DNA from: an uncultured Planctomycetota bacterium
Lineage (GTDB): Bacteria; Planctomycetota; Planctomycetia; Isosphaerales; Isosphaeraceae
DNA length: 64,000 nucleotides
Direction: 5' to 3'
NCBI GenBank assembly: GCA_963845755.1
Contig: CAWJTV010000043.1
Span: forward strand, 56,683 to 120,682
In this document: piece after piece, positions 45,001 to 51,000 of the stretch
Layout: the number at the start of each line of letters is the position of its first letter
Numbering within the stretch: the stretch's first letter is position 1
Made by a program: the position numbers

Positions 45001-48000
45001 TCCCAAAGGGCCACGCCCTCTGGTCCCGAAACGTCATCATCACGCCCCACGGCGCGGGCCAGTCGCCCGGTGGTGAGCGACGAAGGCACGAGATCCTCTG
45101 CGAGAACCTCCGTCGCTTTGCCTCCGGCGAGATGCTTCTGAATATCGTTGACAAGAGGGTCGGCTATTGATTCCTCAACGGAGGACAGCGGCCGGGGAAA
45201 CCGCCCTTCACGCGAGGCGACGCCACCAGGACGATCCCGATCCCGGCGAGACCGAGCACGAGACTCGAGGGTTCCGGCACGGATGCCACGTTAATGACTC
45301 CGACGCCGTTGAGGTCGAAGCCGGATGAAGCGAAGGGGCTCGGAAACGGATCGTTGATCAGGTTCCCGAGCGAATCCCGGGTCCCGTACTGGGGATCGAT
45401 CGAGCCGACCACGTCGGTGATGCGGACTTCCGTCACGTCGTTGACGTTCAGGTACGGAGAGATCCCTGTCAGCTCCGAAAGGTCGAAGCCGGTACCGTAT
45501 CCGGCGACGTATTTTCCGGCCAAATCGTGCAGGTTCGTCGCATCGATCGAGCCGAACCCGCCGATCTGTGTCGTTGTCTGCGTTTCCGTAACGGACGGGA
45601 AGCGGAAGAAGTGCGCGCCATCGGACGAGACGTCCACGAAGGCTAACTCGAGATAAGCTAGCCCGGGTCCCCCCGACAGGAAACCGTTCTCGAAGACTGC
45701 GAAGTCGGCCCCCAGCCCATTTGCGATCGGCGCGTTGAAGCTGAGCGTAATCGAGCCGCCATCGCCGAGCGAGACCACGTGGGCGCTGACGCCATTCGCT
45801 ATCCCCAGGGCGTTGCTCGGATCGCCGAATGAGGCGAGGGGACTGTTCGGGTCGGCGATATCCTCCGGCCCTCGGGTGATCGACACGATCGACGAGGCCC
45901 ATTCATTGATCAGCGGGCTCGTATTGGGGATCCCCAGTGAACCGGTCTGGCCGACCTGAGGGTCGTAGGTGCCAGCGCGAGCATCGATGGCAAGACCGCC
46001 CAAGAATAGGCAGGCCGCCAAGCCTGTCGCACGTCGCCCCCTCCAGACGAACCCCGCCAGCCCTATGAAACCCAACGAAATCATCACCAAACTGCCGGGC
46101 TCGGGGACGGCTGCCGCAGTCGGGACGACTGGCGGCTGACCGGGATACGAGAATTCTGGAGGATTCACGCCCGCGGCGTTGATACCCGCCCAGCCGCCCG
46201 CGATCAGGGTGGTGTCGACGCCGCCATTAAGGTGGAACGCCGGTCCATTCCCCGTGCCGGGCGAATCCCAGATCGACATGAACCCCTCGGTGTTGCCGAG
46301 GTACCAGTTCGTGCCGTCGAAGTAGTTCAGTTCGACGACATATCCTTCCGGAGCATGGTACTGGAAGTCGGACGGCTCGGATGCCTGGATTTCGTTAAGG
46401 GCGTCGTCCATCGTGGTCGAAGGGTCGGACCAAGAGAAGAGCCAGGCGAACGAGGGCGGTGTGCCCGATTTCCAGTCCACGACCAGCATCGTCTGGTTCG
46501 GGCCGCTGCCGAAGCTCTCCTGGATGTCAACCTGCAGGCCGTCATAGGTGACGATTCCTGCACGGGTGATGGAGGAGCCGAGGGTCCCCCAGGCCAGGAG
46601 CATGGAGATCAGGATAGCGCATCTCGCGTCGCGCAGCGGGAAGTGGAAACGCTTTGAGGTCATGAGCAACGGATTCTCCTTCCGGGACATTGAAAACACT
46701 CGGTTCGACACAAAAACCTGCGATCGTGTAAGGGACCAGGCGCACGGCGAACGAGCTCGACGCGGTCCGCGCAGACCGGACGGATGCGGTCGAGTGATCG
46801 TCAACCGCCAGGACACAGTTCAGATCACGGGGACGTCAACGACACGTCTTCGGGCGCGTAACCCGACACAGGGTACGAGGAGGAGCACCCTCCTGACTGA
46901 TCCTGACTCGATCGCCCCGAGAGTGGTCAGGGCTTCGGCACCGTCGCTCCGCGTCTGTACCAGACGAGGCCGGCGGAGCCGAGGAGGCCGAATGCCATCA
47001 TTACGAAACCAGTCGGCTCGGGCACGGCATTCGTGCCGAGGACCAGGTTATCGATCGCGAAGTAAGCCGGCGTATTCATGCCGTATATTGGATCATTGTC
47101 GGAGGAGCTGAGGCCAAATTGAAGGCTTTCGGCGTTCGCGAGAGAGGCCAGGTTCAAGGTCTGCCAAGTATTGATGATATAGCTGTTCGATCCCAGGAAG
47201 TTCGCGAGGTAGAAGTCAACCTCTCCGGTCTTCACTCCCGTCCCGTTGGGCCCGCTATAGCCCTGGACGTCCAGGAGGAAAAAATCGCCCGGCCCGAATT
47301 TGTGGGCGAACTGGTCGCCGTTGAGCATCGAGAGGTAGGCGTAGGTCGTATTGGTGACCTGGACCGATACGGGAGTCGTCCCCGGCGCGAGGTTGATGTA
47401 CGATCCGGACGGGTTGAAGGGGTTCGCAGTCGCCCCGGAGGTGTAGGCCACCGCGTAGGTCAGAGAGTTGTCGGCGCCGGCGCCGGTGATCGCGCTGTAC
47501 TGGTTGGTGTAGCCGGGGGTCGTGGTGTCGGTCGTGGTGGACATCGCCCAGCCCGACCACGAGCCAAAGGTCGAGTCGTAGCTGTTGTTGAATTGAGCGC
47601 CGTCGACAACGAACTGGCCGCTCAATCCCGCATTATTCTCGTAGGAATTGGGCGGCAATCCGAGGTTCTCGAAGGTGATCACTTGGTCTGCGCGAGAAAT
47701 CGACGTGAAAATCGATGCAGCGGCCAGGGTTACGATGATGATTCGTCTCATAGGAAATCTCTCCATGCTCATGGTTCGAGCGGGTCAAATCCTCGGTTTC
47801 AGTACGAATCGCTGCTGAGCACTTCGCCGAGCGAGCGCGTGCAGAGCGCGGCGAGCGGCACGGCGTTGGTCTGGTTCTTGAGGAAACGGACCGAGCCGTT
47901 AACGAACAGGGTATTGACCCCGCCAGGGTGCTGGCTCGTCAGCTCCTCACCGTATTCGGTGGGCGGGCGGGCGTTGATCGGGGCGGACTGGTCGAAGATG

Positions 48001-51000
48001 TTGTGCCCGCTGATCCACATCGCGTTGATCGCCTCGGGGTCCTCGCCGATGTGGATCGTCTGCGAAGCACCGTCGGTGATCTGAGCCAGGGATATCGCCT
48101 GGTTGAAGATCATCGGGCCGCAGGGCGGATTGTTCGTGAAGGTCGGTCTGCTCAGTCCTGCGCGGCCCATACATTCCGCCGTAGTCTGCGTCGGCGTACG
48201 GGAACGCATCGCCCGGTGCGCTGTTCCAATACGAGTTCCTCGGCTCCGAGGGACACAGGTAGATCTGGAGTACCGTGTAGCCGGCGGTGGAGTTGATCGG
48301 CGCATTGTAGGTGAAGCTGGTGTTCAGGCTGTTGTAGAGCGGGACTTGCTCGAGCCAGGGGAGGACGGCGGCCGACCAGCCCATGTTCATGTTCTGGGAA
48401 AGCGGCTGAGTGGGGACGGCGATCCAGCCACCGGCTGGGAACGTGTTGTGGGTGTCGTGATATCCATGGAGCGCGATCCCAACTTGCTTGAGGTTGCTCA
48501 CGCAGTTGATCCGTCGGGCCGCCTCACGCGCCGCCTGGACGGCCGGCAAGAGCAACGCGATCAACACCGCGATGATCGCGATGACGACGAGGAGTTCGAT
48601 GAGAGTGAAGGCTCGCCGAGTCTCGGGCGGGCTGGACACGGGATGGTCCTTTCCGGGGCCTGGATGGATAGGCCTCGCGGAAAGGCATGGGTGGGCAGTG
48701 CGCGGAATGCGCAATAGCCGACCTGCCCGGATGCTTGAGGCCGAAGCATCGCCTGGCTCACCCGAGAGGCCGTGTTCTGGCTCGCGAGTCGATCGGTCCC
48801 GGACGCCTTCCCACGAGGTTTCGCTCGCAGTGGCATTCTTATCCGGGGACCTCCTCGCTTACAGCGGCGGTCCCGCGCCGGAATCTCACCGGCTTCCTGT
48901 CCAGCATGCGGCTGGACGCCTATCGGGTATCGGATGGGAGTCTACGCACGACATACTGCGGATGTCAAGAACCCCTCCCCGATTGCTCTGTCCTAATTCT
49001 TCTCATCCAGGGGGTTGAAAGCAATCTTACGGATGTAGTAGTCTGGTGTGCGGATTCTCATCGCTCGTAATACGGAGCCGACAATGTCGAGATTTCAAAT
49101 CGCCAGGATCGCACGAGGATTGGTCCTCGCCTCCATTGTCACCAGCGGATGGGTAACCCAAGGGATCGCGGCCGACACGATCGTGGTCTACTCATCCCTC
49201 GACCGGGAGTTCTCCGAGCCGGTGCTGAAGGACTACGCCCAGCGGAGCGGCGTCCGCGTCCTGCCCAAGTTCGACGTTGAGAGTACCAAGACGGTCGGGC
49301 TGACGAACCAGATCATCGCCGAGGCGAGGCGGCCGCGTTGCGACCTGTTCTGGAACAACGAGATCCTCAACACGCTCCGTCTCAAGCAGAAGGGCTTGCT
49401 GGTCCCGTTTCAGCCCAGCCGGGCCGGCGACCTACCGGCGACGTTCCGGGCCAAGGACGGGACATGGTATGGCTTCGCCGCTCGGGCTCGGGTGCTGATC
49501 GTTAATACGAAGCTCGTCGCGGAGGCCGACCGACCGAAGGGGATCAAGGACCTTCTCGACCCGAAATGGAAGGGAAAGATCGGCATCGCCAAGCCGCTCT
49601 TCGGCACGACGGCCACGCATGCCGCTTGTCTGTTCGCCAGTTGGGGCGACGAGAAGGCGATGGGTTACTTTCGCGACCTGAAGGCCAATGGCGTGCAGAT
49701 TCTCTCCGGCAACAAGCAAGTCGCAATAGCGGCCGGCTCGGGACAGATCGCCTTCGGTCTGACCGATACCGACGACGCGATGGGTGAGATCGACGCCGGT
49801 AGTCCTGTGTCGATCATCTACCCCGACCGCCAGCCGGACGGCCTCGGCACGCTGTTCATCCCCAATACTCTGGCCATCATCAAGGGGTCGCCCCATCAGA
49901 AAGAGGCCGAGGCGCTGGCCAACCACTTGCTCAGCCCCGAGGTCGAGTCGGCGCTGGCGCGGGGGCCGGGTGCTCAGATCCCGCTCTTGAAGAGCACCAA
50001 CGTCGAGGCCCGGGTCGAGACGCCCAGGACCGTCCACGCCATGGAGGCCGACTTCGAAGCGGCGTCAAAGGTCTGGGACAGGGTCGCAGCGTTTCTCGTC
50101 TCCGAGTTTGGCGGTTGAATTCACGATCGGGGGGAAACATGAGATTGCGATACGTGCTCTCGCTGCTGGTCGCCGGGATCGCCGGCATGGCGCACGCAGC
50201 GGAGGAAGCCAAGAAGGTGTGGGATTTCGAAACCGATGTGACGGGCCAGATCGCCAAGGGTTTCACGAATGAGGTCGGACAGTGGGAGGTGGCCAAGGAC
50301 GGGGATAATCGCGTCCTCTACCAGAAGGCCAAGAACGAAGATGCCACGTTCAACGTCGTCCTCGCCGCCGGAACGAGCTACAAGGACCTCGACCTGAGTG
50401 TCAAACTCAAGGCCGTCGCGGGTGACATTGACCGCGGTGGAGGCGTTGTCTGGCGAGCGAAGGATAAGAACAATTATTACATCTGCCGCTACAATCCTCT
50501 GGAGGACAACTTCCGCGTCTACAAGGTCGTCAGGATGGCAAGCGCACCCAGTTCGCGAGCGCCAAGGTCCCCGGTGATGAGACGTGGCACACCCTACGCG
50601 TGACGATGTCCGGGAACACGATCACTTGTTACCTCGACGGCAAGACCTACCTCGAGGCGAAAGACTCCACGTTTCCCGACGCAGGGAGGATCGGCCTGTG
50701 GTCCAAGGCGGACGCACAGTCCTACTTCGATGAGCTGACCGTGAAGGAGTGAGTGGACGCGGCCGTTGCGCTGCAGGGAGTCGATTGGTATCCCAACAAG
50801 TCGTTGCTTCCTCCACCCGCATTGGAGCTGCTGGTCCCAGCCCGCGCGGAGACACTTCCACACATCGTGAGATATCGAAGGCGAGCGTTCCATGTCGAAA
50901 TCCAGGAAACCGGGCGGATTCACACTGATCTAGCTGCTGGTCATGATCGCGATCATTGCCTTGCTGATCGCCCTGCTCTTGCCGGCGGTCCAGGCGGCGC

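Follow-up and report, generated by a model that had tools for sequence, protein, structure and literature searches.

How could a bacterium that depends on vitamin B12 import it with no TonB-dependent receptor in its outer membrane? We asked this of a riboswitch-led operon in a 64-kb window (the whole stretch of DNA analysed) on contig C43 of the genome G000; feature coordinates are positions in this window (Table 1). The genome-wide survey's note had proposed the operon as a B12 uptake route in a genome with B12-dependent enzymes and neither B12 synthesis genes nor the usual transporters, and these premises held. We found the B12-dependent enzymes NrdJ, MetH and an HpnR-like protein in G000, with no match for MetE and no methylmalonyl-CoA mutase. 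CobS, BtuF (PF01497) and BtuC (PF01032) were absent from its 88%-complete assembly, and two PF00590 loci are insufficient for a cob pathway; BtuF/BtuC-type genes are present in the operons of some relatives. The TonB barrel PF00593 was found in 0 of 25 genomes of the family, G000 included, which rejects an assembly gap as the explanation. The earlier picture had no inner-membrane candidate, and one exists: G000 carries a DUF6580 membrane-protein gene (C39:144084-144581) unlinked to the C43 operon. DUF6580, a possible ECF-type S component, is a member of B12-riboswitch operons in relatives; a profile of eight DUF6580 sequences had no match in the PDB at E 5.

The aptamer scores above the gathering cut-off across the full RF00174 model and lies 5′ of a same-strand gene. 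In the genome search (150 of 1287 first-look candidates scored), RF00174 occurred in G000 on C43 (87.2 bits) and C34 (73.5 bits), each time before a DUF1559 gene as had been claimed, and the riboswitch models RF01689 and RF01482 had no match. The promoter-like site upstream is the sole one in 44900-49200; shuffled sequence yields 0.8 such sites, and therefore its placement, not its mere presence, carries weight. The purine-rich SD (about 48649-48655), which precedes the GTG start at 48639, is base-paired to a predicted anti-SD (about 48678-48684) in both the MFE and the centroid structures; on these folds, the riboswitch would act by translational control. E. coli-type uptake is likewise under riboswitch regulation through the btuB leader, and the two systems share a riboswitch with predicted SD sequestration before the first uptake gene.

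Table 1 Features of the C43 operon, in order of transcription (window positions).
Feature	Position	Strand	Evidence
Sigma-70-type promoter-like site TTGACA-18-TAGACT, directly 5′ of aptamer	48939..48968	(-)	10/12 matches
Cobalamin riboswitch aptamer RF00174	48751..48938	(-)	87.2 bits against cut-off 31.5, model 1-189 of 189
Expression platform	48640..48750	(-)	Predicted anti-SD pairs with SD, z -3.7
DUF1559 prepilin-like gene, clade A	47799..48639	(-)	A↓FTLIE cleavage motif, H-X9-DG-type C-terminus; two frames, break near 48159
g12881: signal peptide, DUF4465 (BtuJ-like), PEP-CTERM	46927..47772	(-)	Pfam 1.3e-51
g12880 domain 1, transcobalamin-beta / DUF4430-like fold	46103..46561	(-)	Model pLDDT 93.7
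g12880 internal junction	45977..46111	(-)	Sequence: PEP-CTERM, membrane helix, basic patch, second hydrophobic stretch, AxA site
g12880 domain 2, BtuH-like B12-binding-type domain	45281..45976	(-)	Model pLDDT 95.6
g12880 terminal PEP-CTERM anchor and stop	45164..45283	(-)	Sequence, domain search

Domain searches confirmed the same-strand order of riboswitch, frameshifted DUF1559 gene, DUF4465/PEP-CTERM gene (g12881) and g12880. The DUF1559 gene matches PF07963 and PF07596 (1.7e-30), and its C-terminal piece matches PF07596 (9e-12) and TIGR04294. The frameshift is probably an assembly error, as judged from one base extra relative to the same-genus genome G001, where the frame is open; none of the contigs of four sequencing runs bridged it. 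The sequencing runs listed were of soil DNA, five in number and with small shares, and none was of RNA. The protein has a class III signal peptide (a small residue before F, Glu5 and a hydrophobic helix; TIGR02532 above cut-off), and the F, T, L and E of the prepilin motif, Glu5 included, are invariant in its clade (clade A). Signal peptide and N-terminal helix resemble those of PilA, PulG and geopilin, with the match to solved pilins confined to the first ~60 residues. Unlike type IV pilins and PulG, DUF1559 proteins have a large globular domain that sequence searches link to no solved structure, and occur as 100+ paralogues per genome (110 N-termini and 80 full-length genes in G000). They form the largest paralogue group of Planctopirus limnophila, with 68 members, two of them essential, and a function described as not known (PMC10632474); passages of PMC13274419, PMC5352709 and PMC4072686 add nothing further on function. 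The papers found name no substrate. NCBI calls P0250 and P0358 'DUF1559 family PulG-like putative transporter', and thus a transport role has already been guessed in general form.

The two downstream genes encode proteins related to known B12 binders. g12881 is an exported DUF4465/BtuJ-type protein (PF14717) with the DE-helix tyrosines and, in the HI loop, the NTPAYF motif that PMC13398666 describes; its best solved relative is 9hmu (E 3.6e-28), as previously noted, followed by 9fct (2.6e-22). g12880 had been described as one large PEP-CTERM protein. Its PEP-CTERM character stood; its unity did not, as the 550-codon ORF encodes two surface domains and two PEP-CTERM stretches, one per domain. 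For domain 1, the top 13 Foldseek rows were all transcobalamin (E 2.5e-3 to 5e-2), and VIA gave Z values of 9.0-9.4 against transcobalamin, intrinsic factor and haptocorrin and 7.9 against 3u7z, with the next at 6.3 and generic beta-grasp folds at 6.3 or less. Pfam returned no match, PF14478 included, for domain 1 (P0002) at E 1; PF14478 was present just in the weak homologues P0225 and P0228. The domain-1 profile also caught T9SS tails, so its Bacteroidota counts were set aside. Domain 2 has the BtuH fold with detectable homology at 18-19% identity: a profile search found 8blw_B (E 2.1e-5, covering BtuG1 residues 375-480), Foldseek placed 8blw_B on top (1.7e-4), and VIA gave Z 13.5 against 7biz_B (rmsd 3.3, 159 aligned) and 13.0 against 8blw_B, with the next at 10.8. 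A single-sequence PDB search with domain 2 gave no match, and Atlas searches gave unnamed clusters only. BtuH contacts B12 through Gln333, Asn399, Phe401, His476, Tyr510, Trp511 and Trp577; domain 2 has an invariant Asn97 and a near-invariant Phe99, which are likewise spaced as Asn-x-Phe. The operon thus combines BtuJ-like, transcobalamin-beta-like and BtuH-like folds, all of which presumably bind B12.

PEP-CTERM/exosortase sorting uses a VPEP motif, a membrane helix and a basic tail. The C43 binders have all three, and G000 has three exosortases, together with four secretin loci and three prepilin peptidases that are not linked to the operon. Unlike in ordinary PEP-CTERM substrates, the first motif of g12880 is internal and away from the strict C-terminal position, and the basic tail also acts as leader for the export signal that comes next, be it Sec or prepilin, from which we infer polyproteins. 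The g12880 junction is predicted from its sequence to hold an internal signal peptide, and the product would be cut there. Among 120 long homologues, 36 were marked as having this junction, g12880 being one of them; the 35 others include proteins of cultured species, which rules out a gene-fusion artefact.

Binder and pilin can also share one ORF. In 12 database proteins, a BtuH-like, DUF4465 or domain-1 module is joined via PEP-CTERM to a prepilin site, and L084 encodes BtuH-like, DUF4465 and pilin parts in a single ORF downstream of a riboswitch-like match (nhmmer 4.6e-7, below the Rfam cut-off). Sixteen PEP-pilin junctions had been flagged, of which three (P0285, P0328 and P0340) were dropped by eye as spurious. 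All 13 binder-pilin fusions fall in the riboswitch-linked clades A or B. Two of the 10 control fusions that lack PEP-CTERM (P0308, LacI-type; P0358, GntR-type) also lie within the wider clade A, a point against the link; DUF1559 is found fused to many unrelated domains. When metagenomes were scanned for the P0334 fusion, two loci emerged, and neither is fused. A predicted complex of the clade-A pilin of G019 with the DUF4465 and BtuH-like domains that belong to it scored 0.01 against a mark of 0.32 and counts neither for nor against.

The frequent DUF1559 genes behind riboswitches of relatives, reported in the note, extend to 39 of 57 riboswitch loci and 30 of 37 genomes (within 1.7 kb downstream; these counts include kin, which are not independent). 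Among 20,000 random G000 positions, 0.66% had a same-strand DUF1559 start within 1.7 kb downstream, against both of the two riboswitches here. The pairing exceeds chance. The seven exception genomes have a contig end (G006), CobN clusters (four) or btuB genes (two). In G029 and G021, a pilin, a BtuF-like gene and FecCD follow the riboswitch in that order. The claim of two pilin clades survived within the family; across the class it failed, with riboswitch-linked pilins polyphyletic in at least three clades plus singletons. Clades A and B held 0 of 72 paralogues (0 of 73 in the first tree) from a background of one genome, G000. The first tree was a quick tree in which 28 riboswitch-linked rows passed filters; the second clade tree omitted two long-branch rows. 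At C34, the small lipoprotein ORF (lipobox LGGC) ahead of a split DUF1559 gene is as reported. The case for C34 is weaker than for C43: its pilin clade lies within a set of ordinary paralogues, and in G000 the pilin is followed by no B12 gene; the orthologue in G015 leads BtuF-like and DUF6580 genes.

Pilins and TonB receptors replace one another beside BtuH-like genes. Among the best 80 GTDB loci, a TonB receptor accompanied 27 of 46 from Bacteroidota and 1 of 34 from other phyla, whereas a pilin accompanied 0 of 46 and 27 of 34, respectively (pilin chance in G000, 4.2%). DUF1559 genes are not known from Bacteroidota, and a count of 0 of 46 is what one would expect of them. Eight genomes with a riboswitch-DUF1559 pair have a TonB receptor elsewhere.

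We conclude that the C43 operon very probably serves B12 scavenging, because it combines three B12-binding-type folds in a genome with NrdJ, MetH and an HpnR-like protein and no MetE match. This much of the proposed uptake route is strongly supported; the part played by DUF1559 stays conditional. Operon position, fusions and the swap with TonB receptors favour, by a modest balance, a dedicated DUF1559 pilin-like protein acting in B12 import across the outer envelope in place of BtuB. Weighing against it are the polyphyly of the riboswitch-linked pilins, the TonB receptors elsewhere in eight genomes, the two control fusions inside clade A, the many unrelated fusion partners of DUF1559 and the BtuH-like genes with no pilin nearby at four planctomycete loci (L057-L060). 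At low B12, the folding suggests, the riboswitch would free the ribosome site. The three binder domains would be exported by Sec and anchored through PEP-CTERM and exosortase, and exosortase and signal peptidase may split g12880 at its junction into two anchored proteins. Prepilin peptidase would mature the pilin, which could then act as a substrate-specific subunit in a type IV or type II-secretion-like filament and, in the weakest step, might take B12 from the binders through a secretin to the periplasm. Type IV filaments are known to take up DNA; no vitamin is known to be imported in this way. In relatives, BtuF/FecCD or DUF6580 would carry B12 across the inner membrane; in G000, the unlinked DUF6580 gene may do so.

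The DUF1559 protein could instead be an inner-membrane-anchored periplasmic B12 binder or relay, similar to BtuF and never in a filament, with B12 crossing the outer membrane otherwise. The Pfam family name SBP_bac_10, the lack of PF01497 in G000 and the DUF6580 or FecCD genes adjoining clade B pilins suit such a role. We consider it unlikely, as the prepilin motif is invariant through Glu5 in clade A and the pilin swaps with the TonB receptor, not with BtuF; moreover, a pilin and a BtuF-like gene share an operon in G015, G021, G029 and G032, so the pilin is no simple BtuF replacement. Co-translated fusions would serve one-to-one export equally well, and the PEP-pilin fusion P0303 has no B12-type domain; both fit a pseudopilin that moves PEP-CTERM B12 binders to the surface as a cargo-specific adaptor, with no import role. 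Against this, riboswitch-led pilins in G027, G029, G030, G032, G035, G033 and G038 have no PEP-CTERM binder downstream and lead BtuF, FecCD or DUF6580 genes or stand alone, and at four planctomycete loci (L057-L060) a riboswitch leads a BtuH-like gene with no pilin within 6 kb, which makes an export adaptor quite improbable.

The link could also be incidental or indirect, with an abundant pilin captured behind a riboswitch and inherited, or with a role in cobalt uptake or B12-dependent adhesion. In its favour, G000 has 110 DUF1559 starts, and CobN follows riboswitch and pilin in G029 and is fused to DUF1559 in P0359. Recruitment of at least three separate clades, pairing over several phyla, and the arrival in the same clades of fusions located via the binder domain render this very unlikely.

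Bacteroides thetaiotaomicron Btu loci are riboswitch-controlled and comprise BtuB-BtuG, BtuH, BtuJ and BtuFCD (PMC8941943, PMC13398666, 10.1101/2022.11.17.516869). The C43 operon is similar in that a cobalamin riboswitch heads several surface binders, among them a homologue of DUF4465/BtuJ and a domain with the BtuH fold. It differs in its pilin-like lead gene, its PEP-CTERM anchors in place of lipoproteins, its possible polyprotein binders and its extra transcobalamin-beta-like domain, and BtuB, a TonB barrel and BtuFCD were not found. E. coli-type uptake proceeds through BtuB-TonB, BtuF and BtuCD (PMC8941943); relatives add BtuF-like and FecCD genes in the same manner, whereas the first gene here encodes a prepilin and not a beta-barrel receptor. 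In the open-access literature, we found neither this reading of the operon nor the polyprotein design in print.

The operon points to an undescribed form of vitamin import without the usual outer-membrane receptor. It provides DUF1559 with a named ligand, regulator and set of partners, widens the range of BtuH-type and transcobalamin-type folds to include PEP-CTERM surface proteins, and brings to light a polyprotein design with two or three export signals chained. Tentatively, DUF1559/H-X9-DG pilins may be substrate-specific subunits of a general TonB-independent importer in planctomycetes, verrucomicrobia and armatimonads, with paralogue-specific PEP-CTERM binders, a retractile filament and a secretin; binder and pilin would sometimes be co-translated as a polyprotein that signal peptidase, exosortase and prepilin peptidase then divide. 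The operon bears on the import of large, scarce molecules in a family whose searched genomes revealed no TonB receptor. If the general proposal is true, B12 would be the first named substrate, and each genome's 100+ paralogues would parallel the SusC/TonB receptor arsenals of Bacteroidota.

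A genome search of G000, the source genome, scored 150 of 1287 candidates and bore out the claim of the genome-wide survey's note that two cobalamin riboswitches exist there, each ahead of a DUF1559 gene, one in the window (contig C43) and one on contig C34; of the two loci, the one on C34 is the less convincing. Two further cobalamin riboswitch families had no match in G000, and the riboswitch is the sole RNA that Rfam detects in the window. A promoter-like site ends at the 5' edge of the aptamer, and folding of the leader predicts pairing of the first gene's ribosome site. Downstream lie three ORFs, namely a DUF1559 prepilin-like gene (pilin) split over two frames, g12881 (DUF4465 with PEP-CTERM) and the 550-codon g12880. 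Relative to the same-genus genome G001, the frame split reflects one additional base near 48159 and is likely to be an assembly error; the G001 counterpart has its own indel at a different place, and only 80 of 110 DUF1559 starts in G000 belong to full-length genes. A solute-binding protein gene diverges from the operon, and at least five further DUF1559-type genes lie within 15 kb; some of these are frameshifted, and a transposase-like ORF breaks one. One of the four secretin genes is 21 kb upstream of the C34 riboswitch.

Coordinates of the features (window positions unless a contig is named)
Feature	Position	Strand	Remark
Cobalamin riboswitch, full-length	48751-48938	-	Rfam, 87.2 bits
ABC solute-binding protein gene	49048-50118	+	SBP_bac_6; PhnS-like below cut-off
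DUF1559-type gene	35231-36409		
DUF1559-type gene	40648-41454		
DUF1559-type gene	50622-51752		
DUF1559-type gene	52517-54214		
DUF1559-type gene	54313-55557		
Transposase-like ORF	near 52735-53683		
Secretin gene	G000:C34:225529-225996		
DUF6580 membrane-protein gene	G000:C39:144084-144581 (L056:8001-8651)	-	only one in G000; no riboswitch

Riboswitch loci fetched from 40 relatives and G000 numbered 58, in 38 of 41 genomes; one had no downstream ORF, leaving 57. A DUF1559 gene starts within 1.7 kb downstream in 39 of these 57 loci and 30 of 37 genomes, against 0.66% at random G000 positions, counts that are not independent because the genomes are kin. The seven genomes without the pairing comprise a contig end (G006), CobN clusters (four) and btuB genes (two). 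Of 41 genomes, 15 have DUF4465; a riboswitch precedes it by no more than about 2 kb in 13 of them and sits at a contig end in the remaining two. At two loci (L017 in G001, L007 in G021), riboswitch-led metE and then class I ribonucleotide reductase diverge from a riboswitch-led DUF1559 gene, and G001 has another riboswitch ahead of an acyl-ACP desaturase-like gene. DUF1559 is also fused to a CobN/chelatase-family gene, or directly ahead of one (protein P0359; locus L032 in G029).

We found that g12881 matches the B12-bound structures 9hmu and 9fct and keeps the HI-loop motif described in PMC13398666, which reports B12 binding by eight DUF4465 proteins. g12880 had been described as a large PEP-CTERM protein; two such motifs are indeed present, and its composition proved to be two separate domains. 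The domain 1 model (pLDDT 93.7) most resembles the beta domains of transcobalamin, intrinsic factor and haptocorrin (Z 9.0-9.4, against 6.3 for generic beta-grasp folds). No Pfam family covers domain 2; its profile matches BtuG1 residues 375-480 (E 2.1e-5), and the nearest structures to its model (pLDDT 95.6) are BtuH2 and BtuG1, at Z 13.5 and 13.0, with 10.8 for the next. According to two reports, BtuH2 binds B12 via the counterpart of this domain (PMC8941943) and BtuG1 carries a BtuH extension (10.1101/2022.11.17.516869). Likeness of modelled folds does not by itself equal binding, but B12 binding by both domains is likely because the operon sits under a cobalamin riboswitch.

The g12880 domains are separated by VPEP, a membrane helix, a basic patch, a second hydrophobic stretch and an AxA site. 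From its sequence, we interpret this junction as a PEP-CTERM anchor, the basic tail of which also begins an internal signal peptide, at which the polyprotein would be cleaved. A script flagged it in 36 of the 120 best long homologues, g12880 included, most of them joining DUF4465 to a BtuH-like domain. We ruled out that g12880 is an artefact, since the junction recurs among these homologues, including proteins of Aquisphaera giovannonii, A. insulae and Tundrisphaera lichenicola. A literature search for PEP-CTERM with polyprotein, reaching a minority of subscription papers, found nothing related. The tandem junction also links a long, unassigned N-terminal domain, which may be a further B12 binder, to a BtuH-like domain in P0159, P0172, P0188 and L100:4606-6825.

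Past the anchor, 6 of the 120 homologues run on into a prepilin site and a DUF1559/H-X9-DG domain, and seven further fusions came from a search starting at the pilin (at least 120 matches listed). Checking 124 proteins for a PEP-pilin junction flagged 16, of which three were discarded as spurious; of the 13 retained, 12 have a BtuH-like, DUF4465 or domain-1 module, and locus L084 has BtuH-like, DUF4465 and pilin in a single ORF. In a quick tree (107 rows) with G000 paralogues, riboswitch-linked pilins formed clade A, which includes the window gene, clade B, clade C, which includes the C34 gene, and singletons, with supports of 94, 97 and 100. In a further tree, binder-pilin fusions fell in clade A or B in 13 of 13 cases and G000 paralogues in 0 of 72, the pilin-side query being itself a clade A member; the sole PEP-pilin fusion without a B12-type domain lay among the paralogues. 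Two of ten control fusions within wider clade A count against the link, as do the moderate supports.

Pilins also appear to alternate with TonB receptors in the best 80 of 555 GTDB loci of the BtuH-like domain, one apparently duplicating G034. The 46 Bacteroidota loci have 38 riboswitches, 27 TonB receptors (a lower bound, because the profile was built from two sequences) and no pilin; the 34 others have 23 riboswitches, 27 pilins and one receptor. Rfam confirmed the riboswitch in 9 of 11 loci tested, four of them missed by our own profile. Four planctomycete loci have a binder under a riboswitch and no pilin nearby. TonB-dependent barrels occur in 0 of 25 family genomes and 11 of 16 from other families; the exclusion is not strict, because eight of those 11 also have riboswitch-DUF1559.

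The survey's view of G000 as a B12 user without TonB-dependent receptor or BtuCDF agrees with our searches, which found NrdJ (above cut-off), MetH and an HpnR-like enzyme, and no TonB barrel, BtuF-like or FecCD gene; MetE, CobN and CobS gave no match. G000 encodes three exosortases, four secretin loci and three prepilin peptidases. A candidate for the inner-membrane step is DUF6580, a family that 28 of 41 genomes carry; in eight relatives it belongs to riboswitch operons, where BtuF-like genes are often its neighbours. We assume that it resembles ECF S components, a likeness that our search did not confirm, and we take the transposase adjoining the G000 gene to be ISKra4-like. Behind cobalamin riboswitches of five genomes (L010, L047, L051, L013, L019), DUF6580 and BtuF-like genes are repeatedly accompanied by a PF01902 (diphthamide-synthase-like ATP-binding) gene, which may encode a corrinoid-salvage amidation enzyme.

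The role of the pilin admits several readings of the riboswitch, gene order, folds, junctions, fusions and distributions that we observed. An export adaptor would fit the binder-pilin fusions, but many pilins lead BtuF, FecCD or DUF6580 without PEP-CTERM cargo, and we consider this role decidedly unlikely. A periplasmic relay is unlikely too, if a little less so. DUF1559 is fused to many other domains, which counts against a specific B12 link; that the riboswitch-pilin association is incidental nevertheless seems to us very improbable.

Passages from publications that use the term DUF1559 give no function, and a search of main texts, reaching a minority of subscription papers, found no pairing with cobalamin. 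In a passage of the BtuJ1 preprint, DUF4465 is noted to occur in Planctomycetota, with no mention of pilins. Transport in general is anticipated by the NCBI product name 'PulG-like putative transporter'. The C43 operon would work similarly to the Bacteroides Btu surface system, but lacks its BtuB and BtuFCD. On balance we favour import: B12 would repress the operon through the riboswitch, each binder domain would bind B12, and the pilin would assemble into a filament that transports it across the outer envelope.
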